Below, piece by piece: positions 14,939 through 54,442 of a stretch of 64,000 bases of DNA (positions within the stretch are counted from its first letter, which is position 1; every line of letters starts with the position of its first letter). The translations under genes were made by a program, and so were the position numbers. Origin of the DNA: Candidatus Bathyarchaeia archaeon. Lineage in GTDB: Archaea; Thermoproteota; Bathyarchaeia; 40CM-2-53-6. The stretch spans positions 448,001 to 512,000 of the forward strand of contig JBEKVV010000001.1 of the NCBI GenBank assembly GCA_049513715.1, read 5' to 3'. The notes beneath the pieces were generated by a model. It had not been told where the DNA came from. It saw nothing but the letters and a program-made list of their open reading frames with translations, and did no database searches.

Positions 14939-15008
14939 GGCATGCTGTTGAACAAGAAGTTCGATTTAACATAAGGAGGCTGGGAACGAGACGGGCCGCG
15001 GGAGATTG

Positions 15009-15229: not shown

Positions 15230-15252
15230 TGGTGGGGCCGGTGGGATTTGAA
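15230..15252 (-). mobile_element. tRNA 3'-end remnant (Pro-like), candidate att site
   Basis: Minus strand reads TTCAAATCCCACCGGCCCCACCA = T-loop, T-stem, acceptor strand, discriminator A and CCA; the rest of the tRNA is absent. Confidence 0.75.
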
Positions 15253-15301
15253 AGATTCCTCGACTAAGTTGCGTAGAGTAGTTGATGAAGGCGTGACATT
15301 A

Positions 15302-15673
15302 GCGCAATAACGACGATTCGTTGGAGTCAAGAAAAATGAACTCTGTAAGGCTACGAGTACTAATAGTACAAGTAAAAAGTTCGAGTTTGCGCGTAAAAAG
15401 TTCGTCGGCGAACATTGTCATCCTAGGGGAGTCCTACATTCCTTGACGATGCGAGAATGGTGAAACCCACCATTTCTAGGAACTACGGCCGTTTGAAGGC
15501 ATCTTTCACGTCTTTTCGTGTCAGTAGGCAGATTCTCGTGTGTCCTACGTCAAAACGTCAAGAAATCTGGTCGCGTCTCAGTGATGGCATGGACAAAACG
15601 GGCTTCAGCGCACCATTTTGGGCCTGCGTAAAAAGTTCGACTGATGGATAGTGAATTGGGCAGATTTGCGCGC
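15302..15673. repeat. ~370-bp structured non-coding direct repeat, copy 1
   Basis: Colinear with 19658-20027 over its full length, with substitutions and small indels. Confidence 0.92.
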
Positions 15674-15787
15674 CTTCCACCGAACGGAAAATTTGGAAGG
15701 GTGATCAAGGTCGCTTTCCTCAAGAAGACGGACGGCTCGAAACGATGTCGCTCTCGGCGTCTTGTTTTTGTCTCTTCGCGTTTGGTC

Positions 15788-16594: not shown

Positions 16595-16724
16595 AGATTC
16601 ACCTCCTTCGTTTCTTGTTCCCGCATAATATTCTTGTTCCAATCAGAATCAGAGAAGCAACTGTTTCTGAACCTGAGCATGTCAGTGTTGGCCAGGCCAA
16701 ACACCCGACTATTCGCCCCTCTCC

Positions 16725-17207
16725 TCAACTCCAATTCATTGGGACGACTATCATGGTACTTTTCGAAATAGGAACGAACTCCGAACGCCGTTTCCTCGAA
16801 AATGGCATCTTATAACGGCTGCAGAGTTTCTCTATTATGCTCTCTGCTTCCTTGACGGCAGCTACTGGATCCGGCTGGTCATCGTCAACAATCAATTCGA
16901 TGTGGCATTGGAAATCCTGGCGGTCTTGGACGAGCCACGCGCTGCAACCCTTGTTTTCAAACAGCTCATTGAACTCCTCAAGCTTTTGATGGATCTCCAT
17001 CTCGTCGTAGACAGTTAGATTATCATCCAAGAAGCCCTCATCACCAAACGTCACTCCACATTCGAAGTAGCCTAGACGGAGCATCTCGTCGCGGCATTGC
17101 TTGCACGCCCAGCCCAGAAATTCAAAATCATGGGCTTGGTCAGAGTCTCTAGTATGAACACTCGACACCGCTCGTGTTGACCCGCACTTGAAGCACAGAT
17201 TCTCCAT
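16725..17207 (-). CDS. zinc-finger hypothetical protein
   Basis: CFKC...CKQC pair; lies within the minus-strand operon. Confidence 0.6.
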   Translation of the reverse strand: MENLCFKCGSTRAVSSVHTRDSDQAHDFEFLGWACKQCRDEMLRLGYFECGVTFGDEGFLDDNLTVYDEMEIHQKLEEFNELFENKGCSAWLVQDRQDFQCHIELIVDDDQPDPVAAVKEAESIIEKLCSRYKMPFSRKRRSEFVPISKSTMIVVPMNWS

Positions 17208-17242
17208 CGCTGCCTCCAGGGCACGCCCATCGATTGAAAGCG

Positions 17243-18655: not shown

Positions 18656-18788
18656 TATTTTTCACTGGGAAGCACCTTGAATTTCGCGGGCAGTATCCCG
18701 CGCATTCACCGCGCACTAGTCCGGAGGGGGTGCGCGACATCAAGAATAATACGGCGGGGAGCCACGGCTACTGTGTGGTGTCCGCCAG

Positions 18789-19385
18789 ATGGTTCGCCGA
18801 TTGAGGACTACTATTCTCTATTTTCTCGTCGAGGAGCGTCCTTCACCGAAGAGGAGCAAGCGTGGGCCAGCGTGGCGCGACGAGTGCTGGAATGCGACCT
18901 CTCTGTCCAACCAGAAGAAATTGAATCCGACTTCGGTGCTTAAGGTTGTCAGCAAGTTCCGCGCCTGCGGCCTTCTGGAGCCCGAGCCCTCGTCCGCGAA
19001 GCTGGTTGAAGAACGGCTTGTTCCGACGAGGACAGAGACGAGGTCGAGGCGCACAGTCTCGACTTTTCGGGGAGCCGTTCCATGCCGCCCGACCGAGAAG
19101 GGGCGCAGGCTCGCCAAGATGATGAGGGCCATCGAAGAGAACAAGATGATGCCGGAGGAGTTCTCCGAGGACGAGGACAGAGCGGCCGAGAACGAGAAGA
19201 TCGTTTCCCGCCTCGCAGCAGCAGGCTTCACGCGGGAGGACTACGAGGCCGCCATTGAGTGCGGATTGATCGCTGAGGAGTCGAGGATGTTCAGTCGTCC
19301 GACAGTCGGATTCAGGCAGCCCGGCCTGAGCGCGGCCGACCTCGTGAGCGTCGAAGTCGCCAAGTACCGTCATCGAGTAACGTAG
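18789..19385 (+). CDS. winged-helix DNA-binding protein
   Basis: TSVLKVVSKFRACGLL...PTEKGRRLA wHTH pattern. Confidence 0.55.
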   Translation: MVRRLRTTILYFLVEERPSPKRSKRGPAWRDECWNATSLSNQKKLNPTSVLKVVSKFRACGLLEPEPSSAKLVEERLVPTRTETRSRRTVSTFRGAVPCRPTEKGRRLAKMMRAIEENKMMPEEFSEDEDRAAENEKIVSRLAAAGFTREDYEAAIECGLIAEESRMFSRPTVGFRQPGLSAADLVSVEVAKYRHRVT

Positions 19386-19657
19386 GGTTCGGCCGCCGGT
19401 CCGCCGCCGTCGACCACTGACGTCCGATTCCGCGAGATAATCTGAAAGATCTGAAAGCTAGGCGTGAAGTTCCTCGCACCCGGAGAGCTCAGCCGGATCA
19501 TGTCCGTCATCGACAAGGGACGAAACTCCTACAACCAGCGAACTATCCGGACCAAGGTTCGGCGGTTCAAGCGGAAAAAGAAGCAACCGAAGTAATCATC
19601 GCATTTCCCATCACAGCGGCTCGCGCTTTCTATCTCGGCCGACATTTTTTACCTGAC

Positions 19658-20027
19658 GCGCAATAACGCCGATTCGTTCTAGTCAAGAAAAATGAACTTC
19701 GTGAGCCTGAGAGAAAGTGAAAGTAATGAAAATGTTCGAGTTTGCGCGTAAAATGTTCGAGTTCGAACTTTTTATTCATAGGGGAGCCCTACGTTCCTTG
19801 GCCATGCGAGAATGGTGAAACCCATCATTTCTCGGAACTACGGCTGTTTGAAGGCGTCTTTCACCTCTTTTCGTGTCAGTAGGCGGATTCTGGTGTGTTG
19901 GACGGCAAAATGCCAAGAAATTTGGTGCGTCTGAGCGGTGCCATGGACAAAAAGGGTTCCACAGCACCATTTTGGGCCTGCGTAAAGAGTTCGACTGAGG
20001 GTCAGTGAATTGCGCGTATTTGCGCGC
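19658..20027. repeat. ~370-bp structured non-coding direct repeat, copy 2
   Basis: Colinear with 15302-15673. Confidence 0.92.
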
Positions 20028-20068
20028 TCATTGCGCGTTTGAAACGAACAATGCGTTATCTTGATCCT

Positions 20069-20275
20069 CTACGTTATTTGAGTGCAGAAGAACCCGCGTA
20101 CAAAATTCTCGTCTGCCAGTTCGGATTGCGCCAGACTGCACTTTCGGCATCCTATTGGAATTGAAGGTGCGAAGCTCGATGACAACGAGTACACAACGAG
20201 AGTCTCTCTACCGTAAGAGGGGAACACACCGGAGGAAGGCACGCATTCAGAAGCGTGGACGGACCCAGTGTTCAT
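20069..20275 (-). CDS. small hypothetical protein (CxxC)
   Basis: ATG overlaps the stop of the RHH gene; CRKC. Confidence 0.3.
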   Translation of the reverse strand: MNTGSVHASECVPSSGVFPSYGRETLVVYSLSSSFAPSIPIGCRKCSLAQSELADENFVRGFFCTQIT

Positions 20276-20454
20276 ACCCTTTTGGCGATCCAGAGCCTAA
20301 GCGCCTCCTCTACGGCTCTTTGAATGTCGCCCTTGTGTAATCCAAACTTCTTGAAAACTGTTTCGCGAAACTCATGTTCGAGTGACTCTGATACTGTCAA
20401 GTTGAGTCGCACAGTTCTTTCCTCCCCACCTTTCTTCGCTTTGCCTTTGGCCAT
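20272..20454 (-). CDS. ribbon-helix-helix protein
   Basis: VRLNLTVSESLEHEFR...GDIQRAVEEALRLWI. Confidence 0.85.
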   Translation of the reverse strand: MAKGKAKKGGEERTVRLNLTVSESLEHEFRETVFKKFGLHKGDIQRAVEEALRLWIAKRV

Positions 20455-20624
20455 GTGAGAAACGTATGCACGTATATGGGTATAAGCGTTTGCACGTTCC
20501 AATTCTGTGCTCTTTCCGCGTTGTCGGCCTGTTTTGGAACGGAACTTTGTCCACAATTCTACGCTTGATCATGCTATTTTTGTCTGCTTTAATACTATAC
20601 AAACAGAGCTTTCGGCAATCTCTG

Positions 20625-20813
20625 TTGAGAGAAGAAAGGCAACTCGTCGACTGCGATGGTCGACCTCATGAACGCAAAAGGGGCCGAGAGAAGGAACTTT
20701 TTCAGTGCGAGTGCGGCTGGATGCTCATTCTTGTGCCGCCTCCGCCTCACTGTCTGAACAGGCGTTGCCGAAACTATCGGCCGCCTCAACTTTCCATCTG
20801 GCGAGGCGACTAA
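20625..20813 (+). CDS. small zinc-finger protein
   Basis: CECG...HCLNRRC; TATA-like TTTAATA ~30 bp upstream. Confidence 0.45.
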   Translation: MREERQLVDCDGRPHERKRGREKELFQCECGWMLILVPPPPHCLNRRCRNYRPPQLSIWRGD

Positions 20814-21154
20814 CTTTAGCACAGCTCTACGTTCGAGCAAAGGAGCCTGAAGGTCGATGGCCTCAGAGCTTCAATCGGACAGTCCGGATCGAGGACTCGG
20901 CCGGCCTGGTATTCCAGTCTCGTAGGGTCATCCGAGACCGTGTTCTATTGGCCTCCAGCACCGTTGGGAGGAAGCAGAACGTTGGAGGACGAAAAGGCTA
21001 CGCGGCGAAGTTCGCCGACCGGTTGACAGGCGAGGTCTACGAGGAGGTGTTCTTCGACTCGGGAGACGCGTGTCGGTGGTGCGATGCCTGCGAGCTGGCC
21101 GCCTTGAAGCGGGCCGAGAAGGCCGCCGCAGGGCCAGTCAACTTGAGCGGCTGA
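20705..21154 (+). CDS. hypothetical protein (true start probably near 20810)
   Basis: Open frame between two zinc-finger ORFs on the same strand. Confidence 0.4.
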   Translation: MRVRLDAHSCAASASLSEQALPKLSAASTFHLARRLTLAQLYVRAKEPEGRWPQSFNRTVRIEDSAGLVFQSRRVIRDRVLLASSTVGRKQNVGGRKGYAAKFADRLTGEVYEEVFFDSGDACRWCDACELAALKRAEKAAAGPVNLSG

Positions 21155-21235
21155 AGCAACGCTTTGCCTTCGACATCAGTCGTCATTTTCGTTCGACTCT
21201 GACACCTGCGAAGCTTCTCCGCGCCCCGGTTATCA

Positions 21236-21421
21236 TTGAAACGCATCCTGCGAGGGCACATGCGATGTTCGACGTGCGGCCGCGAAGCGTTTTTGCTGAG
21301 CACCGCACAGCAGTGGAGGCGTGACGACTGGGTCTACACGGAAAAGTTCTACTGCTCTTCGTGCGGAACAATGTATGTTGCAGAGGGCGGCAAGACTTGG
21401 AAACTGCAGGTGGGACAGTGA
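21236..21421 (+). CDS. zinc-ribbon protein
   Basis: CSTCG...FYCSSCG. Confidence 0.65.
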   Translation: MKRILRGHMRCSTCGREAFLLSTAQQWRRDDWVYTEKFYCSSCGTMYVAEGGKTWKLQVGQ

Positions 21422-21467
21422 ATCGGCCACCTGTTCGCGGAAGCCGTGAGAGCCGGTTGCCTCTTCG

Positions 21468-22403
21468 TCACAAGCTCACATCGTCTCTCGTCAAGATACT
21501 TCCGCGTTCCACGGAACGCTTCGCCCGAAGAGTGAGTATGCCCTCCTGCAGGGCAAGAGCGGAGAGCGACGCACGCCGCGGGCCGTTTTGCTTTCTCAAG
21601 AACTCCATGATGACTGAGCGCACGATCTTCTCGAACCACGCGGTGCCTGGCGTCACTGTCTCGCGGCCGTCCTCGTAGTGCGTGACGAACCTTTCTGAGG
21701 CCTGGTCTGCCACTGTTGACGCCAATGAAAGGGGCTTGCCTCCGTGGGTGAATCCTGACCTGGACTCGTAGCATTGTCGCAGAAGTTCCGGGAACTTTGG
21801 GTCGTCCCTTTCGGATGCGAGTTCTTGGGGGAGGTGGGAGGAGATGAAGTGGGAGAGCTTCAGGAAGTGTCCTTCGCCCGTCTCAAAGGTGTTTGACAGG
21901 CACTCGACCGCCGTGACCAGCATGAACATGGCGAGCGTGGGGTTGTCTTCGGTCAGCGAGACCGCGACCCGGTACGCTTCGCAAGCGCGAAGGCACTGCT
22001 GCGCGTCCTTGTCGTTCAAGGAGCAGAGGCCGTTGAAAAGCGGGTTCAGTTCCGAGTCGGACTCAATCGGGCTTTTCCTTTGCCTGTGCTGTCTTCGTTG
22101 CAGAGTGATGTTGACGGTGTTGATCTTGGCCGAGTCGAACTCGATTTTCGCTCCGAATGCTAAGGAAAGCCACGCTAGGATGTACTGGGCTTCCCTTTCA
22201 GGGTTTGATGCGATCTGATCCTTCTCCCAAACGTCGGGGAATTCGAGCAGCATGTCTTCGCCGCTAGGGCTGAACGGGTCCCTCTTGGAGGGCAGAGTTG
22301 TGATCCGGTACTTGTCAAACTTGATCTCGGCTAGGTTGGGAGAGACCTCCCTTCCGCAGCTGAAGCGAACCGCAACGCGGTGGACTTCGCGCTCTTCTTT
22401 CAT
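21468..22403 (-). CDS. HEPN domain protein (ApeA/MauJ-like)
   Basis: LVTAVECL and YESRSGFTHGG (RxxxxH). Confidence 0.75.
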   Translation of the reverse strand: MKEEREVHRVAVRFSCGREVSPNLAEIKFDKYRITTLPSKRDPFSPSGEDMLLEFPDVWEKDQIASNPEREAQYILAWLSLAFGAKIEFDSAKINTVNITLQRRQHRQRKSPIESDSELNPLFNGLCSLNDKDAQQCLRACEAYRVAVSLTEDNPTLAMFMLVTAVECLSNTFETGEGHFLKLSHFISSHLPQELASERDDPKFPELLRQCYESRSGFTHGGKPLSLASTVADQASERFVTHYEDGRETVTPGTAWFEKIVRSVIMEFLRKQNGPRRASLSALALQEGILTLRAKRSVERGSILTRDDVSL

Positions 22404-22468
22404 GCGTGGAGAAGTGTGGGCACGGCTCTTATCTGAACTTCGCAAATGGGGCACACGGACATTGGGAT

Positions 22469-22488
22469 GCGTTTTCCCGGGAAAACGC
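22469..22488. repeat. palindrome GCGTTTTC-N4-GAAAACGC, copy 1
   Basis: GCGTTTTCCCGGGAAAACGC. Confidence 0.8.
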
Positions 22489-22508
22489 GGTAGACGGAAA
22501 GCCCTGGT

Positions 22509-22871
22509 CTATGGTTCGATACTCTTTCTCGCAATTTCGCCAATGGCGGGGACGATTGCCCAAATCAACCACACAAAGACGGCGATTCCCGACCCCAAGG
22601 TGAGTGTCGACAAGCTGAGCCAGACATTTCCCGTTAGAACTAACAGTACGGCGGCCGCCAGAATCGTCCCCAGTAAGAGCGGAGTGAAAACGTACCATGT
22701 CCAAAGCATGAGTACCTTCTTGCCCATTAAACCGAAGGCGGGTTCTCGGATCTTACGCCCGACTCTTCTCACAAATCTGACCGCAAACAGAACTACATTG
22801 ATTGCCCAGAAGAGAAGTGACAGCGCTCCCAACGTGGAAACGATTTCATCCAATTGTGAACTCGCGACCAA
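22509..22871 (-). CDS. small membrane protein (3 TM)
   Basis: Three hydrophobic stretches. Confidence 0.6.
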   Translation of the reverse strand: MVASSQLDEIVSTLGALSLLFWAINVVLFAVRFVRRVGRKIREPAFGLMGKKVLMLWTWYVFTPLLLGTILAAAVLLVLTGNVWLSLSTLTLGSGIAVFVWLIWAIVPAIGEIARKSIEP

Positions 22872-22919
22872 GAGCCGGTAATCCTGCCTATAGACATTTT
22901 GAGTTTTCCGGCGGGAAAG

Positions 22920-22939
22920 GCGTTTTCTCAGGAAAACGC
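22920..22939. repeat. palindrome GCGTTTTC-N4-GAAAACGC, copy 2
   Basis: GCGTTTTCTCAGGAAAACGC. Confidence 0.8.
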
Positions 22940-23039
22940 GCTCCGCAGAAAGGCTTGGCAGGGCATCCGGGTGCCTTGCGTTATTATCGGTTCACTAGGC
23001 GAACTAACCCGTTCCTTAAATTCGCAGCGAAAGGTGAGG

Positions 23040-23474
23040 GTGAGAGCCTTGACAGGCGAACCGACCAGGGCATTCAGCCAAAAGGCCGACCTACTTGAGG
23101 TCTTCCGCTGGGAGCCGTCTACATATTTCACCAATCTGCAGGCAGAGGTAGCCGAGGAGATAGTCCTCTTCCTTCGCAACAACGGAAAGGACACAGGGCA
23201 GGAAACATACACGCACTGGAGGAGCGGCGATGTGTGGAGACTCGTCAGGGTTTCCCGCGCAGCGTTCCACAAGTTTGCTGAGTCGCAGAAGCTGTGCAGC
23301 TCACGGTACGTCTGGAAGGTCATGAGAAAGCTGGTGGCCCTCGGCTACGTTCGAGTGTTCACTCTGAAAGGGCAGAAGGGCTACGGCCTCGTTGTCAACG
23401 CCATGAAGCGGCACAAGGTGTCCGCGAGCCGCTACGAAAAGTTCATGGCACCATTGAGAAAAACGGCGAGTTGA
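23040..23474 (+). CDS. winged-helix DNA-binding protein
   Basis: SRYVWKVMRKLVALGYVRV...GYGL wHTH pattern; AGGTGAGG before GTG. Confidence 0.55.
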   Translation: MRALTGEPTRAFSQKADLLEVFRWEPSTYFTNLQAEVAEEIVLFLRNNGKDTGQETYTHWRSGDVWRLVRVSRAAFHKFAESQKLCSSRYVWKVMRKLVALGYVRVFTLKGQKGYGLVVNAMKRHKVSASRYEKFMAPLRKTAS

Positions 23475-43343: not shown

Positions 43344-43482
43344 TGTCCGACAGCCACTGTATAGCAACCCTACGGCTGAATTGTCCGACACGGAACCTCT
43401 CGGCTCATGGAATGTCGGACAGTGTCATACACTTGTCGGACACTTGTCATACAATTGTCGAACAGTTATCGAACAGTGTCGA
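43344..43482. repeat. iteron-like array of TGTC(N2)ACA motifs
   Basis: Nine copies, seven spaced at 10-11 bp. Confidence 0.85.
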
Positions 43483-43592: not shown

Positions 43593-44951
43593 TTGGGTAA
43601 GCTGTTTCTGTCGATAAGTTACGGGAAGGATGATGAATGGTTAGTGGAGGTCATTAGAAGCGAGTTTGGCGTTCATGGTATTGAGTGCGTCATAGCCCAA
43701 GAGATCTCTAAGACTCCCCCGCTACCGGTTATACTGAACAAAATACAAGCATCAAACGGTTTTCTAGCGGTGATCACTTCCAACGAGAGCGACTGGATTC
43801 AGAACGAGATTGGTATGGCCTATGCAGCATATGGAGACAGAAAACCGATTTACGGCTTAGTTGAAGAAGCAGTGCCTAAAGTCGGGGGAATTCTTCCCCT
43901 CGTGTGCAAGTACCATCGGTTTTCCAAATCAAATACTGTCGAGTTGCGGAAGCTGCTTGTTGAAATCGCAAGGGAATTTACACCGGAGGCTGCTGTTCAA
44001 ACGCACGGCGTTGTTGCGGTTTCTCCACAGCCTTGGCCTTATCGGGCTACTCAAGACTCAAGGTACCCCGTTGGGGAAGGAACGGAAATTCTAACATCAA
44101 CGGACGACCACCAGAATACAGTCAGAGTATTGGTGGCAGTAAGGCCTCATGAGGTTCTTCACGGGGATGAGGTTGTGACGGTCTACATCCCGCCGCAGTT
44201 TGACCTGACATCACCTCTGAACAATCCTTCTGAAGAGATCCACACAGATTTGCCAGCTTCTGCGGGTGACATAATGATTACAGTGAACCCTGACGAGGAT
44301 CCCAATTATCCAGGATTCTGGGTTGTGAAGGCCACGCTCAGATTCCCCGAGGCTCAGTCTTCGTTGAAAGGGGGATGGTTCAGCTTCAGGCTTTCGCAAG
44401 TCGTCGCTCCTAAGGTGGCGGGCACATACCGGTTCTACGGCAGAGATGAGATACTGGTCGTCGGGGTTACGCCTACACCGTCTCAGTTTGACTTCCACCC
44501 TATCTATGTCAAGGGTGAGTACGTGACTTGGAGTCTGTCAGGGATATTATTCCTCTCGAAAGACAAACCGTTGACACTGCCGGCTGTTGTCTGGGCAACT
44601 GGTACCGCAGCGGTTCCATCGACGCATCAGTCAACTGGCAGGAAGGTCACATCGGTTTGCTATGTAACTTCCAGGGAGAAGGGCCATTATGCTCTAGACC
44701 TCGCTCCAGGTGTCTATGACCTGTATGGTGGCGCGCTTGGCTATTCCCAATTTCTCATCGCGTCAGAACTGTCGATGTTCGAGCCTAGGGAATTGAACGG
44801 ATTTGTTCTCCATTCGCTATCCCGGGCTGATGTTTCCCTTCAGGCGAGGGAAACGATAAGGAAATGTCATTACTGCGGCGCAGAATTCTCACCGACCGAC
44901 ATAATCTGCGGGAAATGCGGCACGCCCGCTACAGACCTCGAAACTCACTGA
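43593..44951 (+). CDS. TIR domain + beta-sandwich (surface-protein-like) region + C-terminal zinc ribbon
   Basis: LFLSISY...D, SDWIQNEIGMA (TIR catalytic Glu context); CHYC...CGKC. Confidence 0.75.
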   Translation: MGKLFLSISYGKDDEWLVEVIRSEFGVHGIECVIAQEISKTPPLPVILNKIQASNGFLAVITSNESDWIQNEIGMAYAAYGDRKPIYGLVEEAVPKVGGILPLVCKYHRFSKSNTVELRKLLVEIAREFTPEAAVQTHGVVAVSPQPWPYRATQDSRYPVGEGTEILTSTDDHQNTVRVLVAVRPHEVLHGDEVVTVYIPPQFDLTSPLNNPSEEIHTDLPASAGDIMITVNPDEDPNYPGFWVVKATLRFPEAQSSLKGGWFSFRLSQVVAPKVAGTYRFYGRDEILVVGVTPTPSQFDFHPIYVKGEYVTWSLSGILFLSKDKPLTLPAVVWATGTAAVPSTHQSTGRKVTSVCYVTSREKGHYALDLAPGVYDLYGGALGYSQFLIASELSMFEPRELNGFVLHSLSRADVSLQARETIRKCHYCGAEFSPTDIICGKCGTPATDLETH

Positions 44952-45169
44952 CAGGTACCAACGGAATCCTAAGACGGCCAGAGCTAACCCAAAACTAGCC
45001 CAGACGGAATATTCCTTGCCAGAGACTCACATAAGACATGGTTTGGTTTTCCCGGCTCTAGGCTCAAACCAACTGACATTACACTAGAGACCCTAACCTT
45101 CTAACAATACTGCTTTTTTCCATCGGATTTCTGGCCCGCTTTTAATACCTTGCGAAGTATGAGAAGTAA

Positions 45170-45445
45170 GTGAAAGACATGGCGAAGCGGATACGACTTC
45201 TTGACGAAGAAGATCCCGCAATCAGAATCGTCGGATTCGTCGGCGGGTCTAAGTCCATCACCATTCCGACGGAGTGGTGCGGCGACCTCGGCATCGCGCA
45301 GGGGGACTATGTCGTCCTGTGGCGAGGAGTCTACGAGGGCACAAAGCACGGGTCAGTTGTGGTTATCCAGAAGTTGAACGCGGGGGCCACGCACCGTGAC
45401 GGCCGGCAAACCCAAACCCAAGGGAAGGCTGGGACTAGTGGCTGA
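45170..45445 (+). CDS. AbrB/MazE-family DNA-binding protein
   Basis: GGSKSITIPTEWCGDLGIAQGDYV. Confidence 0.75.
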   Translation: MKDMAKRIRLLDEEDPAIRIVGFVGGSKSITIPTEWCGDLGIAQGDYVVLWRGVYEGTKHGSVVVIQKLNAGATHRDGRQTQTQGKAGTSG

Positions 45446-46304
45446 CCAACGCAAAGTTACAACAAGCCTCGCCACTACCATCTACGATGACCTGAAGTCG
45501 CTGGCCGATGAGCGCGAGCTTTCCGTCGCCGCGATGCTCCGGCAACTGACAGTGATGGGAGTCGCCGAGGAGAAGACGCCTGTGATGCCGCTCGGAATCG
45601 AGGCTGGCTTCGGGCCTCCGCATCTTTACTTCTTCGGCACTACCGGCCAGGGCAAGTCAACCGTCATCGACGAGTACGTGATCCCACGCCTCGGACGCGG
45701 ACGGCGGACGGTTGTCTTGACCGACAGCAGCGACGACATCAGGAAGATCTACCGGGACGCGTTCAAGGTAGTGCTCCTCGCTTCGAGCCGGAAGTTTCCG
45801 TCGTTCGACAACGAACGCTACGAGGAGATTAAGGCACTGCAGGCCGAACCGGAGTTTGAGGCGGAGGTCAGCAGGGCGATTAATGCCGTGGTGGACTCAA
45901 GACATCGGAAGATCATCGTCGCGGTTAATGCGCCTGACAAAAGGGCGAAGAAGTGGCTTGTGAACTCCTTCATAACGGAAATAGTCGGCCGTGACTGGGG
46001 CAACCCCGGACTGCTCTTCGTCGTCGAGGACGCACACAAATACGACTGCGAGGAGCTAGTCGGCAGCGGCCGAAAGAATGGCATAGTGGCCGTCCTCGCG
46101 GGCGTCAAGGAACCCGATGAAGACACCTCGCGGAACACTCGCCTCGTCCTCGGCCCGGTCGGAACCGCCACGGCGACCCGAATCGACCCGACAATCGTGG
46201 CGATATCGAAGCGGCTCGGACGAGGAGAATTCCTCTGGCAGTACTCGGCCGGACGCTGGGCAAGGTTCCGGCACGAGAAGCGGAGGGAGGCGAGGAAGCG
46301 GTGA
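45396..46304 (+). CDS. RHH domain + FtsK/HerA-superfamily P-loop ATPase
   Basis: N-terminal RHH (LKSLADERELSVAAMLRQL); GTTGQGKS, LFVVEDAH, GRKNGI. Confidence 0.75.
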   Translation: MTAGKPKPKGRLGLVADQRKVTTSLATTIYDDLKSLADERELSVAAMLRQLTVMGVAEEKTPVMPLGIEAGFGPPHLYFFGTTGQGKSTVIDEYVIPRLGRGRRTVVLTDSSDDIRKIYRDAFKVVLLASSRKFPSFDNERYEEIKALQAEPEFEAEVSRAINAVVDSRHRKIIVAVNAPDKRAKKWLVNSFITEIVGRDWGNPGLLFVVEDAHKYDCEELVGSGRKNGIVAVLAGVKEPDEDTSRNTRLVLGPVGTATATRIDPTIVAISKRLGRGEFLWQYSAGRWARFRHEKRREARKR

Positions 46305-46347
46305 CGGGATTCTTGGTCGCCGACTGTCCGAGCTTCGTAATGCACCC

Positions 46348-46478
46348 GGTTCTGTTAACTTGGCTGGGGTGCCGAGCATTTTCTTGCCCATTGTTAACCG
46401 CTTAGGGGGTTCTGTTCTGGTTCTGCTAACTTGAGTGGGTGGCAAAACTGACTTATCTAGATGTTAACTTGTGGGGGG
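46348..46478 (+). repeat. left motif array GGTTCTGYTAACTTG...GGG
   Basis: Copies at 46348, 46419 and 46460, plus a partial at ~46391. Confidence 0.7.
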
Positions 46479-46724
46479 CCACATTTCTGAACAAACCCTC
46501 CGACCAAAAACATTCTATACATCGTGAGTAGAGTAAGAAATCGGTCGAAACATTGTCTGGCAAAGACGATCAAGACTACGCACCAGTAGACGATGCTCTT
46601 ATCAAACTCAGAGAAAAAGAAAAGAAGAAAAAAGTGAATGTAACTGAAAGCGAGTCGGGTCAACAACCAGACCAGAAGTAACTCTTCTGAAATCGAAAAG
46701 CGCAAACTGTTCTACAATTATTCA

Positions 46725-47198
46725 ATGCAGACCAATAGTTGGCTACAAGATTCCAATGAGAGAATTAGCGCGAAATTTTCCAATGTTATTGTGTTGAACT
46801 CAAGTGTGCTTACGATACTATTTGGCTTGGGATATTTCCTATTTCAAAATAGACTGAATCTTAGCAATTATGGGTGGCTTACTGTTGCTCTTCCAATATT
46901 CTTTGCCTTGTGTCTTTTCATTTTCATATTAGCGATTGCAGTGGGCGTATTTTACTATCGACCAGTGGATTTCAACTTCGCCGACCCTATGGTACTTGTT
47001 GACACTCTAAAGGGGGTGCCATACGCGATTACTTTGAGTCGAATAGCGGCTACAATCGCAAAACAGGTTTCCAAAAACCGAGAGGTTGTAAACAAGAGAG
47101 GCGCTCATCTTGAATGGGTTATGACCCTAACAGCTATCGGGTTCTTCTTGATGTTTCTCACAGGGTCTTTGCTAGTCTACCTTTGGATGCTTTCTTGA
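46725..47198 (+). CDS. membrane protein (3 TM)
   Basis: Three TM segments with a soluble loop; AT-rich. Confidence 0.6.
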   Translation: MQTNSWLQDSNERISAKFSNVIVLNSSVLTILFGLGYFLFQNRLNLSNYGWLTVALPIFFALCLFIFILAIAVGVFYYRPVDFNFADPMVLVDTLKGVPYAITLSRIAATIAKQVSKNREVVNKRGAHLEWVMTLTAIGFFLMFLTGSLLVYLWMLS

Positions 47199-47335
47199 TG
47201 AGGCGATTCGCGCCCTCCATTTCAGAAGAGATGGAACGAGCCTTAGAGAAGGAACGCAAGAAGCGGATGCTAGATTCCATCCCAGAAACGGCTAGGGTAA
47301 TCATCAGCGAGTATTTGACTAGGAATTATGGGTAG
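47198..47335 (+). CDS. 45-aa ribbon-helix-helix protein
   Basis: MRRFAPSISEEMERALEKERKKRMLDSIPETARVIISEYL. Confidence 0.65.
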   Translation: MRRFAPSISEEMERALEKERKKRMLDSIPETARVIISEYLTRNYG

Positions 47336-47543
47336 GTGGAACAAGTGGAAGAAGCCTTAGCGGTAGCACAACCACTAATCCAAACCGGAGCACGCATGGA
47401 AATGTGGTGCGGTATAGTTCCTCGAACACGAACAAATACACCTACTGCCTTTTTGTCACTTCCGGTTGCCTGTCTCAGTGACAAAGATGAAATAGGAGTA
47501 CGATGTCAGAGTATTTCTCACTTGATTGGAGGCTTGAAATAAG

Positions 47544-47729
47544 ATGTCTGGTGTAGGAGGAGCTGTATTGGTGCGCGTCATTCCTACTGGAACTGGATCA
47601 AAAAGAATTACCATTCCGAAAACTCTCTTAGAGGATGTGTTAGGCGACAGCGAATATGCTTTGATCGGCAAGGAAGAGGACGGTTTACTGATTCGGCCTG
47701 CCGAAATAAGGGCAGCTAAGAAACGTTAA
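47544..47729 (+). CDS. AbrB-like small protein
   Basis: GSKRITIPKTLLE...GLLIRPA. Confidence 0.65.
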   Translation: MSGVGGAVLVRVIPTGTGSKRITIPKTLLEDVLGDSEYALIGKEEDGLLIRPAEIRAAKKR

Positions 47730-47762
47730 AATAGGACATGGTGTAGTGTCACCGTATCTACG

Positions 47763-47984
47763 GTGACATTGAACATGGTGGAACTGCGTGTAGGAGCTGA
47801 CACCACAGAATTTCTAGCTAAATTATTCGCAGCCGTAGTTGTAATTCACATCCTCGCCGCAGTCTTGTATCTGCCATTTTACACGTATCTCACACAACAG
47901 GAATGGATGGTTCTTTCCGATTTCATCAATGCAGTTGCGAAGGCACTTCGGGATTTCTTTGGTTCCTTCCTCGGATTCCTCTAG
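47763..47984 (+). CDS. small membrane protein
   Basis: TM helix plus amphipathic C-terminus. Confidence 0.5.
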   Translation: MTLNMVELRVGADTTEFLAKLFAAVVVIHILAAVLYLPFYTYLTQQEWMVLSDFINAVAKALRDFFGSFLGFL

Positions 47985-47994
47985 GGGATGTTTG

Positions 47995-48162
47995 ATGATG
48001 AAACCGAAAGACGCAGCGTTAATCGCGTTGATTGTTGAAGGTGGAGCTTGGCTATACCAACGATTGCAGAATCATCCGCTTGAATGTTCGTGCGGAGGAT
48101 GTGTCGCGATTAATCTCTCGATTCCAATGACACTGTCGTTCTGTCTTGGTGAATCAAAATGA
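47995..48162 (+). CDS. small hypothetical protein (H..ECSCGGC)
   Basis: Overlaps the next ATG; part of a compact operon. Confidence 0.45.
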   Translation: MMKPKDAALIALIVEGGAWLYQRLQNHPLECSCGGCVAINLSIPMTLSFCLGESK

Positions 48163-48419
48163 AAAAAGAAGCGATGACGCAGATAGTCAATGAGGAACTA
48201 GCGCATATTCCGAGAACGGGTAGGCACATCTATGATGCTCAAGCGCAACTACGAGGAATGTACAACGCCATGCGGAGACATGGCCTTAAGTTCGGCAAAA
48301 CGAAGGAAAGAACTCTAGTAGAGTGTATCGAGTTTTTGAGGAAAGATCATCCGTCTTGGCAACCAGTGTTTGACAAAGCATTCTTCCTCATGCAAGAGTC
48401 AGAGGTGATTCAGTCTTGA
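48159..48419 (+). CDS. hypothetical protein
   Basis: 86 aa; overlapping start/stop with both neighbours. Confidence 0.6.
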   Translation: MKKEAMTQIVNEELAHIPRTGRHIYDAQAQLRGMYNAMRRHGLKFGKTKERTLVECIEFLRKDHPSWQPVFDKAFFLMQESEVIQS

Positions 48420-48664
48420 GCTATAGAGTAGGTCGAAGTCGAATGTTTACGAGGCGAAACAACCCCCGGTACTACAGGCTAGGGCACATTCCGCGTTCCA
48501 AGATTCAACCTTCAAAGATTGGGGATGCGATAATCGATAAAGTCGTCCCCGATCATGCCGAAATCAAAGTCGGTGGGCCTGCTCCATTCCCACGAGCAAA
48601 GGTTGAATGGGACAGGGAAAAGAAGGTACGAATCTCTCAACTTCGTAAGCGGTTCCTTGAGTAG
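48416..48664 (+). CDS. basic hypothetical protein
   Basis: GAGGTGA SD upstream of TTG; Arg/Lys rich. Confidence 0.5.
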   Translation: MSYRVGRSRMFTRRNNPRYYRLGHIPRSKIQPSKIGDAIIDKVVPDHAEIKVGGPAPFPRAKVEWDREKKVRISQLRKRFLE

Positions 48665-48668
48665 GCAA

Positions 48669-48719
48669 CCCCCCACGAGTTACCAGACCAACAAACCACC
48701 CATTGAAGTTACCAGAACC
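48669..48719 (-). repeat. right motif array (inverted relative to 46348-46478)
   Basis: CCACCCATTGAAGTTACCAGAACC matches the reverse complement of 46419-46442 at 21/24. Confidence 0.7.
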
Positions 48720-48891
48720 ATGCACCCCCCACCCCCACTGCGAAAGGGCAAAAACCGGAGGAATACGTAGGTTTCCGCGCATTCCAGCCCTTTTTTCTCC
48801 GGTTGGTTTGGCTATCAGAAACTTGACGACACTTAGTTTGCGCGGCCAAACAGGTGGTGCTCGCTCCGCTGCCTCAGATCATTGAATATTG

Positions 48892-49422
48892 TTACCTATT
48901 GAATCGTTCAAGAAAGAGAAGGCAGAAGATGGCGAGGGCAATTCCACATAGAATGGACAGAAACACAGCGCCATTCCCTGTGAGACAATGCGCCCACAGG
49001 CTAACGGATATGATTGTTGCAACATTAGAAGTCGCCCCCAGTAGTAAGCGGAGCACAATCAGAAGACCAATAACAGCCAAAAATATTCCTTGAAGGATTT
49101 TCGATAGGAATTCCAACTTAAGGTTTGACCATTGTGCAAGCAAGGATGGTCTTAGCCGAATTGCAATAAGAACTATGCCCGTCGCAAACGGCAGCAATGT
49201 GAGAAACGATTGATTCTCGGCAAAAGACCAGAAGGTTTCCAGTGTCGGCTTCTCAAAGAAAGTGCGAACGATGCTATTTCCTTCACATTCGCCGAACCCA
49301 AGGTGAACGAATAGCGCAGATGTTCCTCAATCCAAGAGAACGGAAATCGCATACAACACTATTAGGGATGCAAAGCCTCGCTGGCTTCGGATATTCTTAA
49401 GGAAAGCAAACATTACGATCAT
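48892..49422 (-). pseudogene. DUF5658-like membrane protein with an in-frame TGA
   Basis: ...VLLD*GTSALFVHLGFGECEGNSIVR...; stop at 49327-49329. Confidence 0.5.
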
Positions 49423-50126
49423 CTTTCAAGATAAGGTGCTGCAGCACTTGCAATATTCTAGTCGGTTTCGCGACGACGCGCATTTTCGCCATTCGAATTC
49501 GTGACTGTGGGCCTATTCGCTCGTTGGGGGGCCAAGGGCCAACGTACTTCGACATAGCCAACTATCGCTCTTCTAGCTTGCGTCTCGCAACTTAGCGTTG
49601 TCTCCGATGGATACTGGTCGGCATGAATGGCGGGTGTGGGACAACGCGGGCGAGTCTTGCGACATCGAAGAACGCAGAGTTCAACGACGCCACTACTCGC
49701 CGGTCGCCCCGGTCGGATACAGACAGTAGCGCTCAGCATTAGCCTCTTACAGGTCTGCTGTTAGCGCATCCAATCTCTACGTTGAGTATTAAAAGACCGA
49801 AGAAATTCATGCATCTGAGATTAGAGACAGCAAGGGACAAACTGTTCAGCTCACTGGTGTCCCTACCGACACTTGGGGGCGGCCGCCTGAAACTTGGGCC
49901 GGGTTGGAGACGGAGCGGTAGCGGCCTAGGGCTGAAAGTGAAAGGGATTGGAAAGTGGGGGGCCGCTGCCGAAACAGAAGGCGGGAGATGGGAGGGTGAG
50001 CGGAAGCGGGTGGAAAGGGGAATTGAAAGGGGAGCAAACGGGAATTGAGCGGGAAGAAAAGCATCATGGCCAAGATCATACAAAGGGCCAAAAGGGCCAA
50101 AGTGTCGGCGGACGGACGCTCGCCGG

Positions 50127-50285
50127 TCAGACATTCTCGACGATCAGCCGCTTGCCTTCGACTTTGAGCTTGACCTCTCCCTTTTCGTCAGGCAGGGGGA
50201 ACTGCGAGTCCCCGCTGATGATGATCGGCACATAGATCAGGAATCGTCCGTCCGCTCTCCAATAGCTTCCCTTCCCTTCCAGCAT
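50127..50285 (-). CDS. 52-aa AbrB-like protein (DSQFP type; not in ORF track)
   Basis: MLEGKGSYWRADGRFLIYVPIIISGDSQFPLPDEKGEVKLKVEGKRLIVENV. Confidence 0.7.
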   Translation of the reverse strand: MLEGKGSYWRADGRFLIYVPIIISGDSQFPLPDEKGEVKLKVEGKRLIVENV

Positions 50286-50391
50286 TGTCGTTTGCCGCGT
50301 CTCTGGAAGAGATACACTTATTTGTTTCTTCCTACGTATAACCCTGCGTCTAACGGCACGTTGAACTCTTCGTTAGACACGAAACTTCCAT

Positions 50392-51279
50392 GTGAGAAAG
50401 AAAGAAAAAGGAGGCGTTCCGAGAATGGCTTTGAGCGTAGTGGTTCGAGTCCGTCTGAGCCGGAAGGTTGAGGAGATCGTCGGGTCTCCGTCCTGGGGCG
50501 GACGCGACAGGTTTCTGGAAAGAGTGAGTTCGTGCTGGCTGTACGCCGAACCCAACCGGAAGTGGGATGGTAAGCGATGGATTGACCTTGGAATCCGGCA
50601 GGTTTTGGTGGCCGGCAACGCGAAGCTGATCCTTGCTCCGCGTGACGGGCAGACTTGGCAGTGGGACGCCACAGACATCTACCACGCGGGGAAGAACGAC
50701 TGGGCGGTCGCCATCGCCGGCCAGGAGGCTGAGGCCGAGTTTCTATCGTCCGATGCCGCGTGCATGGAAACCGTAGGAAAAGAAGTCGTCGAGGCTGCGC
50801 CGACAGTTCAGCCGATTGCTCCCGCGTCTCAGGAAGCGCCGAAAACGCCGATCAGAAAGTGTCCGAAGTGCGGGGCCAGCCAAAAAGAAGAAGCGAAATT
50901 CTGTGACGGTTGCGGGGCGAAGCTTCCCGAATTCCTTGTCCGGGAGTTCGCCATAGTTTTCTTCGACGACCGTGAAAAACTGGCAGAGTTTCAGGACGCG
51001 AGGGTCAACGCGGCCCTTGTCCGCGCAGAGAGGGGTAGGAAGGTCAGCCGACAAGTCCTATTCGATGACCGCTACGCCGTTCTTCTCCGTGCTTCGGCTA
51101 AGGATGCGAGTTCGGCAGCGGACTTGGACACTCTTCGAGCAGTATTCGCAGAGTTCGAGGACGGAACGAAGACGAAGTACGGCGAAGTCCTTACGGACGC
51201 TTACGAACTAAAAACACTGCGCAAGATGCTGCTCGAAAAATATCCCGAGTCGGAGCTGTGGCGCGGGGACGAAGAGTAG
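50392..51279 (+). CDS. zinc-ribbon domain hypothetical protein
   Basis: CPKCGA...KFCDGCGAKL. Confidence 0.7.
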   Translation: MRKKEKGGVPRMALSVVVRVRLSRKVEEIVGSPSWGGRDRFLERVSSCWLYAEPNRKWDGKRWIDLGIRQVLVAGNAKLILAPRDGQTWQWDATDIYHAGKNDWAVAIAGQEAEAEFLSSDAACMETVGKEVVEAAPTVQPIAPASQEAPKTPIRKCPKCGASQKEEAKFCDGCGAKLPEFLVREFAIVFFDDREKLAEFQDARVNAALVRAERGRKVSRQVLFDDRYAVLLRASAKDASSAADLDTLRAVFAEFEDGTKTKYGEVLTDAYELKTLRKMLLEKYPESELWRGDEE

Positions 51280-51490
51280 TTGCGGGAGGTGACTTGACCT
51301 GTTCAGAAATAGGGTTGGTCTGGCCGGCGTCGGCGCCGTAATCGCGGGGGTATGGCTTCTCTGCTTCGCGGTTGCTTCGGCAATCGTGTCCGCGTACCAG
51401 TCGGCCTACTGGCCTGCCTTCTACGCGATGGCTGTCGGAGCTTCCCTCGTTGCTTCCGGCACGGTGTTGGCCAGAACGTTCAGGTAGGGG

Positions 51491-51736
51491 CTACTTGTTT
51501 GGCCCTCCCAGACTTGGCCCGATGGCTCTGGGGTTTTGGAGCCACCGCATGGCTGCCTTCTTGGTTTTGAACTCCTCGACAAAACAGTCGGCTGTGGTGT
51601 TGTCTGTTGCGACCCACCATTGGCCCTCCTTGGCCAAGTAAAGTGCTCGATAGCGCTCCATCTTCCACCGCTCGCTATGTTCAATGAGACGGTGAATGAA
51701 CCGCTTCGAGACCTGCCTGACTCTGCGCTTCTTCAA
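51491..51736 (-). CDS. hypothetical phage/plasmid-type protein
   Basis: WVATDNTTADCFVEEF...AMRWL; overlapping operon. Confidence 0.6.
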   Translation of the reverse strand: MKKRRVRQVSKRFIHRLIEHSERWKMERYRALYLAKEGQWWVATDNTTADCFVEEFKTKKAAMRWLQNPRAIGPSLGGPNK

Positions 51737-51978
51737 GATTTGTTCGCCTCCTTATCGGGGGAATAGTTCGCTACTCCTTCCTCGAAGATGTCCGGAAGAT
51801 CTGCGTCACAGCGTGGGCATTTTTGCTCGCATGAACCGCCGTAGGGGTCGGTGTTGCTGTATGTGCCTGTCTTGGGGTTGAACTCGTATTGCTCGCAGGT
51901 GCCGTACTCGACCTTGTCCAGCGGTTCGCCGCATTCGGGGCATTTTGGAGCCTGGAAGTGTTCAGTCGAATTCGGCAT
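51733..51978 (-). CDS. zinc-finger protein
   Basis: CPECG...CPRC. Confidence 0.65.
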   Translation of the reverse strand: MPNSTEHFQAPKCPECGEPLDKVEYGTCEQYEFNPKTGTYSNTDPYGGSCEQKCPRCDADLPDIFEEGVANYSPDKEANKS

Positions 51979-52474
51979 AGAGCGCTCCCTTCCTGATTGC
52001 TTCGGTGATGTTGGTTTCCGATTCTAGTTGCTGGTCGGTCAGGTTCTCCTGTTCGCTGTCATCGATCAGGTTGAACACGTCCCAGTGGCTCTTCTCGTAC
52101 CAGACACGTTTGCTTGACCGAAGTCCGCCGGTGAGGCAGAGAAAGACATCAACTCCGTCGGCCTGGGCGGCGAGTGTTCGAAGTTCTTGAAGAGTTTTGA
52201 TTTGTGGTTTGGCGGCTTTCAGTTGTTCCGCCAAGGTGTCGAGCAGCTTGGCTTCCTGGGGGTATACTTCTGGGTCGGTGTCGAAGTCGCTCAGCCAGTC
52301 CAACGCGTACCTCAGGGTTTCAGGGTCGAGTTCGATCTGTAGTTTCAACCTTGAACCGCATCCTTCGGGTGTCTGACCTCGAAGTTCGTGTTCCAGTCGG
52401 GAGCGATCACCGCTTTGCTTCCGCAGACCGGACATCTTCCGTTCTTCCTGAGGTTTCCGTGGTTGTTTGGACAT
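51962..52474 (-). CDS. hypothetical protein
   Basis: GGLRSSKRV, FNLIDDSEQ, TNITEAIRKGAL. Confidence 0.6.
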   Translation of the reverse strand: MSKQPRKPQEERKMSGLRKQSGDRSRLEHELRGQTPEGCGSRLKLQIELDPETLRYALDWLSDFDTDPEVYPQEAKLLDTLAEQLKAAKPQIKTLQELRTLAAQADGVDVFLCLTGGLRSSKRVWYEKSHWDVFNLIDDSEQENLTDQQLESETNITEAIRKGALYAEFD

Positions 52475-52501
52475 TCGTATTCCACATCGTCCATTTCCAT
52501 T

Positions 52502-53350
52502 TCACCTCACGGGTTCGCTTCGGCGGATGGCGGGCATGGCCGGCGCGACCATGACCCTCCTGGCAACGTCCTCGTACCTTTGCCTCGCCAACGGTTGCGC
52601 TGCGAGTTTGTGCGTCGCGTAGTTCGTCAGCGCGTTCGCCAGGTCGTATTTGGTGAGGTCGGTAGTCCGCTCCAGCCTCCTAACGATCTTCTCGGAGACT
52701 TTCGGCCCGATGTCGAGCCTTTTCAGCACGGTGTTGACGTCTTCAGTGAGGCGTTCTTGGGCTGCTCGTTGGACTAGCCGCTCGAACTGGGGCCGCTGTT
52801 CTCGGATGCGGCGGATAGCGAGCCGAACCCAGTTGCGGACGCTGCTGCTTCCGACGTGGATTTTTCTGGCCGCCATTTCCTTCGTCCACGCGTGCAGGCC
52901 GTTCTCGCAAACCTTCCTCCACGCGTAGTAGGCTGCGCTGACTGCGGTGCTTCCGTCGTAGCTGTTTCCGAAGAGAATGCCGTCCCTGTAGGTGTCTCCG
53001 GATATTGGCTGGAACTCTTGCGGTGAGAGGGCGGTTACCCAGATGCGCCCCTCGTCGTTCCAAGTGTCGACTCTGCCGTGGCTGTCGTCAAAGCCGAATT
53101 CCGCCAGCTGGGAGACCACTGCCTTGATGAGGGCGGCGTGCTGGACCACGGTGTAGGTTTTGCCCGAGATTTGCCAGAGCCTGTCGCCGCTGAAGACCGC
53201 TTTGTAGTCTCCTGCGTTGCGCCAGGTTTCTGCGGCACGGGAAAACTTGGCTAGTGACTTGGTTTCTGCCACCGGCAGCTTGTCGCCGACGGCTAGGAGT
53301 TCGTCCAGGCCACTGAACTCATAGCTCGAAAACTTCGTTGCGTTGCTCAA
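52502..53350 (-). CDS. DUF932/DUF945-like phage/plasmid protein
   Basis: YTVVQH, NSYDGS, RKVCENG, KIHVG, YDLANALTNYATH; GGAGGTGA SD. Confidence 0.85.
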   Translation of the reverse strand: MSNATKFSSYEFSGLDELLAVGDKLPVAETKSLAKFSRAAETWRNAGDYKAVFSGDRLWQISGKTYTVVQHAALIKAVVSQLAEFGFDDSHGRVDTWNDEGRIWVTALSPQEFQPISGDTYRDGILFGNSYDGSTAVSAAYYAWRKVCENGLHAWTKEMAARKIHVGSSSVRNWVRLAIRRIREQRPQFERLVQRAAQERLTEDVNTVLKRLDIGPKVSEKIVRRLERTTDLTKYDLANALTNYATHKLAAQPLARQRYEDVARRVMVAPAMPAIRRSEPVR

Positions 53351-53848
53351 TCCAATTTCACCTCCATTTTCATTTCTTCGTCGTCGGTCGTTCGGTCGTG
53401 CGGGACGCGGCTTTTACTAGCCGCCTCCCAAGTTTTCGTTTCAATAAATCCCACAATCTCACCTCCTTTGGTTGTCGTGGGGGCCAGCGTTCAGAGAAGT
53501 CGTGTTCGGTGTCCGGCAGAGCGTCCGCTGACCAGTCGACGCTCGTCCGGTTTCAGGGATTAATGAGAAAACCTACGCCGTTTACGGGCGGCAGGAATTG
53601 TAGTCCGCTTTTGAACCGGCTGCGTAGGCGTACCGGTTGGGGACGTGAAGCGAGCAATCCTCCTGCACTCCTTCTCGAAGGCTTAGAAAACCAAAACCAC
53701 CCTGACAGACCTGAAGGTCAGAACTACTCATGCCCCGTTCAAGGATGCAACGAACTGGACTGATGTCAGGCGTCCACTAGCAGATTTGCTACGGTACATA
53801 TGAAAGGCTAATTTCCAAGAACCCGACCTACAACCTACTCGACGACAA

Positions 53849-54442
53849 ATGCCTTTCTGCTCACAGTGCGGTACCGAAGTAGAGTTGCATTTCTGTTGGC
53901 GATGCGGTGCACCCCTATTCCAAGCAGACTACGAACTTGTGGCTGAGGCAGTAGATGAGCTTGGTCGCCGCTTCATAGATCAGTATGAGGGATTGGAGCG
54001 ACAGATCCGAGCCGCTTTCAGTGATGCAAGGTTCGCTTTCCACGAAGCCATCGGGTGCTGTAAGAATGGAAACTATCTTGCTTCTGCAGTAATGTGTCGG
54101 GAAACCATCGACGGCATAATCCTCCTAGCAGTACTTCACACTGTAGATTCGCAAAAGCAACCAATCATCGACATCAACACGCTAGAGCAATTTTCGGAAA
54201 AAGAAATTCCTTGGGATCAATTAAGGCAGTGGGCAACGGATAGAAAATACGTTGATCAAACGCTTCTGAACACGATTCAGGACATACGAAAACTAGGCAA
54301 CTTCGCGGCCCATTACGTTGAACAAGTCATGCGAGGAGTAGCAGAGGCAGCTAGTGCACCATACCGAGTATGGATTTCCCCTGAGGAAGCGTACAGATCC
54401 TTACACATCGTGAGTCAATTCGTTATGAGCGTAATAGGATAA
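53849..54442 (+). CDS. zinc ribbon + DUF4145 (HEPN-like) protein
   Basis: CSQC...CWRC; EAIGC, ASAVMCRETID, IRKLGNFAAH. Confidence 0.8.
   Translation: MPFCSQCGTEVELHFCWRCGAPLFQADYELVAEAVDELGRRFIDQYEGLERQIRAAFSDARFAFHEAIGCCKNGNYLASAVMCRETIDGIILLAVLHTVDSQKQPIIDINTLEQFSEKEIPWDQLRQWATDRKYVDQTLLNTIQDIRKLGNFAAHYVEQVMRGVAEAASAPYRVWISPEEAYRSLHIVSQFVMSVIG

Follow-up and report, generated by a model that had tools for sequence, protein, structure and literature searches.

The window, a contiguous stretch of 64,000 bp (C1:448001-512000 of the source genome, G000), contains a gene in which an N-terminal TIR-like domain is joined to two beta-sandwich domains homologous to host surface proteins (Table 1). 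The open reading frame and every motif quoted in the original prediction are present in the translation. An AlphaFold2 model of the 452-amino-acid protein, calculated from a 12-row alignment (pLDDT 79, pTM 0.77), consists of an alpha/beta domain and two sandwiches. The C-terminal zinc ribbon is accessory, being carried by 3 of 23 rows in the family alignment, whose members are 33-79% identical to the query. The original prediction mentions neither this ribbon nor the paralogue and the repeated element core described below. No match to the single fusion protein was found with PADLOC, NCBIfam, or the PDB sequences.

Table 1. Features of the fusion gene and its surroundings, in coordinates of the window.
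Feature	Position	Strand	Basis or remark
Repeat cluster, 11-bp spacing, TGTCSGACA core	43344..43477	.	Upstream of fusion gene
Whole fusion gene	43593..44951	+	TTG start, 452 aa; ORF reading and AlphaFold2 model
N-terminal TIR/NDT-fold domain, residues 1-131	43593..43985	+	Profiles, motif, fold comparison
S66-D-W68-I-Q-N-E72 motif (position of E72 codon)	43806-43808	+	Alignment
Captured domain D1, residues 138-309, Ig-like beta-sandwich	44004..44519	+	Homology to surface-protein domain 1 (mature form)
Captured domain D2, residues 311-405, CarboxypepD_reg-like beta-sandwich	44523..44807	+	Homology to surface-protein domain 2
C-terminal zinc ribbon, CxxC...CxxC, residues 424-445	44862..44927	+	Pfam scan
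Mobile-element core: AbrB/MazE-like, RHH-ATPase, zinc-ribbon protein, DUF932	45126..53570	.	Abuts fusion gene

The N-terminal domain had been predicted to be a TIR domain with its catalytic Glu intact. Pfam TIR_2 matched residues 8-91 (E = 8e-4) with 20.3 bits for the whole protein and 23.9 bits for the domain alone, which is below the curated cut-off of 28 bits, and among 19 family rows TIR_2 was recovered in 15 and Nuc_deoxyrib_tr, weakly, in 13. When the modelled residues 1-131 were compared with known structures, the nucleoside deoxyribosyltransferase (NDT) 7o62 scored best (Z 13.2, rmsd 2.7, 117 aligned), next to the TIR domains 4c6t (VIA-align; Z 12.8, rmsd 2.9, 127 aligned) and 7fcc (Z 12.6); the five-stranded flavodoxin-like fold of the model is common to TIR domains and NDTs, and the fold comparison is a tie. 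Because both score equally in structural terms, the TIR label rests on the motif and not on the fold. All 23 homologues have W68, N71, E72, G74, and Y77, and 17 have S66; in a profile alignment S66 and E72 coincide with S68 and E74 of Cat1, both of which are reported to be required for its function (PMC12162218). NDTs, MilB, and RCL have the fold and the position of the catalytic Glu in common with the fusion protein, but the aligned NDT rows have D and G at positions -6 and -4 relative to this residue, whereas the fusion family has S and W, as in Cat1. The catalytic Tyr of NDTs lies in strand 1, where 21 of 21 family rows have F (F5). At the sequence level the S-x-W-x-x-x-E motif favours TIR over NDT, and NAD+ probably is the substrate of the domain. 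The motif and the Glu of the prediction thus were upheld, but neither the Pfam score nor the fold singles out a TIR domain.

It is improbable that the domain is instead an NDT-type N-glycosidase acting on nucleotides other than NAD+, a possibility that would be compatible with the sensor readings discussed below. The segment E-I-G-x-A-Y-A-x-x-K-P resembles NDTs, and the best PDB profile match, like the best structural match, was to an NDT (7m5h, E = 0.002); this match, however, spans positions 48-94 only, whereas that to the Cat1 TIR domain (E = 0.004) covers positions 1-82. A plain NDT identity was not adopted, since the residues before the Glu are of the TIR type (S and W) with no D-x-G, and strand 1 carries F.

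In tblastn searches of G000, residues ~150-397 of the fusion protein matched three secreted proteins that are 1319-1472 aa long, with E values between 1e-15 and 1e-21; phmmer added a weaker match (E = 0.003) to a fourth secreted protein with a length of 1014 aa. An hhalign comparison of the fusion with the donor alignment gave a probability of 99.95% (E = 2e-37, 245 columns). The resemblance of the middle region to Bathyarchaeia surface proteins, which the first reading had drawn from recall, is therefore confirmed within the organism's own genome, including the CarboxypepD_reg-like character of D2. The captured part comprises the first two domains that follow the signal peptide in the donors; every capture begins with the first mature strand and retains at least two whole domains. 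Y-x-P-P-x-F, A-P-x-x-A-G-x-Y, and V-K-G-E contain invariant residues that are common to fusions and surface proteins. The module of the query's clade is ~28% identical to present host surface proteins and sits on a long branch in the tree.

All four G000 donors have a signal peptide and, by sequence reading, three of them end in a PEF/PEL-TM-basic tail; TIGR03024 scored 18.9 bits (cut-off 23) with the donor on contig C5 and had no listed match to the two other tailed donors. About ten G000 proteins carry PEF-like C-terminal tails. A search of G000 for the exosortase/archaeosortase family PF09721 gave no match, and the enzyme that processes these tails may be a divergent one. The donors match NF052345 weakly, and their codon bias is unremarkable. 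Of the 401 genomes of the class, 77 encode donor proteins. Within the order they occur in 73 of the 104 genomes other than G000 and in the genus in 22 of 22, but one sister genus lacks them (0 of 22). The 24 named relatives of a single donor came from Bathyarchaeia/Bathyarchaeota (n = 19), one archaeon, and four bacterial bins. Members of this family (L002-L005, L008-L036) are secreted, sequon-rich, multicopy proteins of 1000-1530 aa, which makes them candidate S-layer proteins. The only cultivated Bathyarchaeum possesses an S-layer, for which the accessible text of its description names no protein (PMC10477458). An S-layer or viral-receptor function of the donor is a guess.

In the fusion protein itself, neither a signal peptide nor a TM helix was found in the 452-aa sequence, in agreement with the original prediction: the highest 19-residue hydropathy is 1.18, compared with 2.3-2.8 in the host surface proteins, and values above 1.6 occur in 3 of 23 family rows, where all peaks are internal. 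The module of the 23 fusions contains 0.33 N-x-S/T sequons per 100 aa, close to the 0.34 expected from composition, whereas the same region of 33 surface proteins contains 1.54 (0.65 expected). A cytoplasmic location therefore is likely, given the lack of export and membrane signals together with the loss of glycosylation sequons.

Searches seeded by the donor alignment (top 120 of 164 matches) and by the fusion profile (top 150 of 1191 matches, with 57 of 134 new identifiers matching the donor profile) recovered, among the matches listed, at least 16 more proteins that carry the module without the donor signal peptide and joined to a different partner, of at least seven kinds; the suggested check for the same region on other effectors thus gave a positive result. 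A coverage screen flagged the four proteins with two TM helices but not P0116 and P0163, which were picked via Pfam, and fusions can be missed in this way. The partners are a second TIR_2 type (P0116 and P0163, Pfam E = 2e-17, over cut-off; fragments P0210 and P0182) without BLAST match to the query's TIR, a CAP12-type TIR (P0221, P0260; over cut-off), DUF4062 (over cut-off) followed by an R-x-x-x-x-H motif that we take to be HEPN (P0225), a DUF4365 nuclease (P0270; E = 3e-22, PADLOC REase E = 1e-15), a C-terminal DUF3226/TOPRIM-like domain (P0181; Atlas score 0.94), two TM helices (P0124, P0143, P0151, P0156), TPR (P0215, P0217; under cut-off), and a region without family match (P0218). The 16 come from databases and were judged without their genomic context, several of them as fragments or from a single record. 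With 0.43 sequons per 100 aa they fall below the donors (1.36 in 32 proteins). Defence systems are reported to use DUF4062 domains as NADases (10.64898/2026.09.04.749371).

The trees require at least two changes between fusion and surface protein. With FastTree, the group of second-TIR and two-TM proteins is nested inside the surface proteins, and in a quick IQ-TREE calculation P0270 alone is nested. P0116 shares 77% identity over 217 aa with a surface-family match, and its D2 adjoins the signal-bearing P0074 in the tree. These changes and the likeness of P0116 to the surface family indicate that capture or refreshing from host genes recurs. Partner swapping has also occurred within the query's clade, since P0181 and P0182 carry the module of that clade. 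Wholesale replacement of D2 by that of different host paralogues was rejected for this clade because the D2 tree groups its 17 rows with a support of 99; a loop motif in D2, M-T-x-R-x-D-P-Y-T-G versus G-x-A-x-D-P...S-T-G-R, is all that splits these rows, and it splits the donors likewise.

A constant module on many defence effectors is an established pattern, known from CARF, SAVED, STING, and STAND sensors, and the captured module is therefore interpreted as the sensor. In a defence or stress protein it could alternatively bind a small molecule, a glycan, or a metal, or act as no more than an oligomerisation scaffold; its surface origin would then be incidental, with no mimicry of a receptor. 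Tandem Ig-like domains are generic binding modules: pilins and adhesins were the low-TM Foldseek matches of the modelled sandwiches, a generic Ig-like resemblance, the modelled D1 weakly matches the fold of YcnI (Z 10.5), and the invariant residues listed above could be structural only. Such a role is quite unlikely, though, as it leaves the repeated joining of one host module to many effectors, and its refreshing, unexplained.

The homologue search yielded 14 matches, of which 13 are fusions or parts of one. Of 53 loci identified by a metagenome scan, 26 combine TIR and module and 27 have a related TIR alone; five of the 26 represent the two copies present in the query's own species, one has an early stop (L059:195-869, 225 aa), and one is cut by a contig end. 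Scans of genome and viral contigs with the fusion alignment, which were limited by the search pattern, confirmed no fusion, and a search for longer homologues with the module returned the query's own record only, missing the known donors too. Within the order the fusion is present in 1 of 105 genomes, namely G000, while eight others hold related TIRs with other partners. G000 harbours a full second fusion that is 80% identical (C1:615040-616386), as well as a TIR piece (C7:530-931, L125) with 64-67% identity to the TIR of P0116 and P0163 that is followed by a stop, has no module behind it, and looks degenerate. Among the loci with related TIRs, L065-L084 encode proteins of a zinc ribbon, the TIR, and a C-terminal hydrophobic tail, and at L089:3100-4449 the TIR is joined to a uridine-kinase/PRK domain.

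Between the two G000 copies dN/dS is 0.07 for the TIR, 0.14 for D1, and 0.23 for D2, and eight other pairs gave 0.05-0.29 where computable. The gene is under purifying selection in all domains, and with module values of 0.08-0.27 an average excess of amino-acid change, and thus an average sign of positive selection, is absent.

The gene is solitary and patchily distributed, occupying variable islands or single-gene insertions. At 21 fusion loci examined, the widest neighbour cluster reaches at most four loci, and at L052 and L057/L058 the fusion gene, alone or with one additional ORF, lies between genes that are adjacent in G000. PADLOC matched 8 of 76 neighbours at E 0.001, some of these matches being weak or to housekeeping proteins. 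The paralogue lies beside a PD-T7-4/DUF4145 protein and a TIR-like protein; the other labelled neighbours are a Mokosh-like helicase, a type II methyltransferase, Mrr_N, an integrase, and a terminase, and most neighbours are unlabelled.

The mobile element next to the fusion gene has a second copy at G000:C1:116283-124483 with 71-92% nucleotide identity. The slot to the left of this copy that is equivalent to the fusion gene's is filled by type I restriction, methyltransferase, and BrxC/D-like ATPase genes; the region G000:C1:108021-124483 (L124) also contains a Hypoth_Ymh protein. No integrase was seen within the core common to both copies. The argument for a cargo slot rests on these two copies, as the RHH-ATPase of the element occurs in 1 of 105 genomes of the order. 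Further cargo on the plus strand comprises a small TM protein with a weak PycTM match (46725-47198, E = 4e-5) and a zinc-ribbon DUF4145 protein (53849-54442). The repeats upstream of the fusion gene are possible regulator or origin sites: TGTCSGACA, a motif picked post hoc, has 27 exact matches in the genome, four of them in the cluster, against 0.77 expected, and 2 of 100 shuffles also reached four. Elsewhere, a second island at ~13758-23471 of the window contains ORFs without assignment that are partly virus-like, and beyond the window G000:C1 ~518400-533100 holds an island between two integrase-like ORFs with ORFs that read as methyltransferase- and restriction-like.

The fusion protein probably has a role in defence. 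That it is a non-defence protein, either an envelope signalling protein or one of several chance chimeras persisting in recombination-prone islands, is very unlikely: the whole protein matches no defence model and multicopy surface genes are likely donors for chance fusions, but this reading conflicts with the purifying selection in every domain, the catalytic motif intact in 23 of 23 homologues, the patchy and mobile distribution, and partners that, among the matches listed, come almost exclusively from the defence repertoire.

The fusion belongs to no named system tested, and it would act like a single-gene sensor-effector with a sensor of new origin. With Thoeris ThsB (types I-IV) it shares a TIR domain with a catalytic Glu, but it lacks a match to the ThsB models and a ThsA or caspase neighbour at the loci examined, and it carries a long C-terminal module from a host surface protein. 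As had been noted at the outset, no ThsA-like effector is adjacent: neither ThsA (SIR2-SLOG, TM-Macro) nor a caspase effector was present among the 76 scanned neighbours and in the 64-kb window, and Thoeris was not adopted for this reason. The STALD and ThsA_Macro models had no match throughout G000, but control models were silent too. A lone SIR2_2 gene of 373 aa is located in another variable island (G000:C3:180679-181170; L128:6194-7315). Like Cat1 (TIR-CARF), TIR-SAVED, and TIR-STING, the protein combines an N-terminal TIR, with S-D-W-x-x-x-E aligned to Cat1, and a C-terminal ligand-binding module, but this module is Ig-like and not nucleotide-binding, and there is no adjacent cyclase or CRISPR locus. 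Assignment as a TIR effector of CBASS, Pycsar, or type III CRISPR was rejected because SAVED, STING, CARF, and CNBD domains are absent and no cyclase neighbour is conserved; one neighbour gave a weak cyclase match (a nucleotidyltransferase in L054). Avs/STAND, Vulcan, and NIR-HEAT likewise are single genes that pair interchangeable effectors (TIR, NIR/DUF4062, nuclease, TM) with a constant sensor, but the fusion has no NTPase or repeat sensor, and its constant part is a fragment of a host secreted protein; Avs/STAND was not adopted because a central STAND NTPase is absent from the Pfam scan and the model. In plant NLRs with integrated domains, a copy of a host protein is fused into the immune receptor. 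The fusion resembles these in its host-derived domain, as indicated by homology and trees, but it is archaeal, has no NB-LRR, draws on an extracellular donor moved to the cytoplasm, and its bait role is putative. In the literature covered, with subscription papers and bioRxiv supplements outside its scope, a surface-protein fragment as cytoplasmic module of prokaryotic defence effectors is undescribed, and the accessible text of a survey of STAND receptors describes no such surface-protein module (10.64898/2026.01.04.697583).

The reading that we favour, held with slightly less than even confidence, is a stand-alone cytoplasmic antiviral sensor-effector that uses a captured part of a host surface protein as its sensor and in which a viral binder of that surface protein would trigger NAD+ breakdown. 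A viral protein that binds the host surface protein would also bind the captured copy in the cytoplasm, and the bound module would cluster the TIR domains, a step proposed by analogy with Cat1 and ThsB. Clustered TIR domains would switch on NAD+ breakdown and so arrest the infected cell; as a partner gene is absent, direct NAD+ depletion after clustering is the most likely output, as in Cat1. Activation by assembly likely is a feature in common with Cat1-type effectors (PMC12162218), and a precedent for sensing by TIR proteins is a staphylococcal ThsB pair that is reported to bind a viral structural protein directly (PMC11312562).

If the protein acts in defence, its ligand is somewhat more probably than otherwise a viral surface-binding protein with a function in receptor binding, exit, or superinfection exclusion. 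Bathyarchaeia viruses are reported from 56 genomes (10.1101/2023.08.24.554615). Two sequence features speak against a viral ligand: ~28% identity appears low for a mimic of a current receptor, and the dN/dS of the module seems unlike that of a sensor chasing such a ligand. Archaeal viruses may furthermore bind S-layer glycans, which an unglycosylated copy could not mimic. The decoy idea of the original prediction thus gained from the surface origin, the likely cytoplasmic location, and the fusion to other effectors, and lost ground on the low identity.

The same selection pattern would suit a conserved host ligand, as expected if the module self-associates with a host precursor piling up in the cytoplasm once infection has blocked secretion, or with a virus-encoded homologue of the surface protein, upon which the effector fires. 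Capture that keeps the first mature strand and at least two whole domains also fits such an envelope guard, and refreshing from host paralogues would maintain self-recognition. It is nonetheless unlikely: the low identity of the query's clade holds towards the host's own proteins, nascent precursor would pose an autoimmunity risk, structures in a viral library resembled the donor model only as generic Ig folds (TM <=0.27 by query), and the pattern-limited scan of viral contigs gave no fusion.

The favoured reading of a decoy sensor for viral proteins can be extended, tentatively and with more doubt than belief, to a family of receptors that present virus-facing domains of the surface protein, probably an S-layer protein in this reading, as cytoplasmic bait for new viral receptor-binding proteins, carry interchangeable killing domains (three TIR types, NIR NADase, nucleases, membrane helices), and are refreshed from surface genes. 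How prokaryotic defence proteins acquire new sensors is an open question, and here the sensor donor is identifiable, conserved, and multicopy. Because one module occurs on several effectors whose action is easily read out, as NAD+ loss, DNA cleavage, or toxicity, the bait idea can be tested directly. If it is true, a virus would escape only by altering its own entry protein, and the fusions would parallel, in prokaryotes, the integrated decoys of plants, offer a new way of acquiring immune specificity, and supply a module for sensor engineering. They would then point out what the viruses of an uncultured archaeal order use as receptor, and would give access to the receptor and cell envelope in a class of archaea that is abundant and for the most part uncultured.
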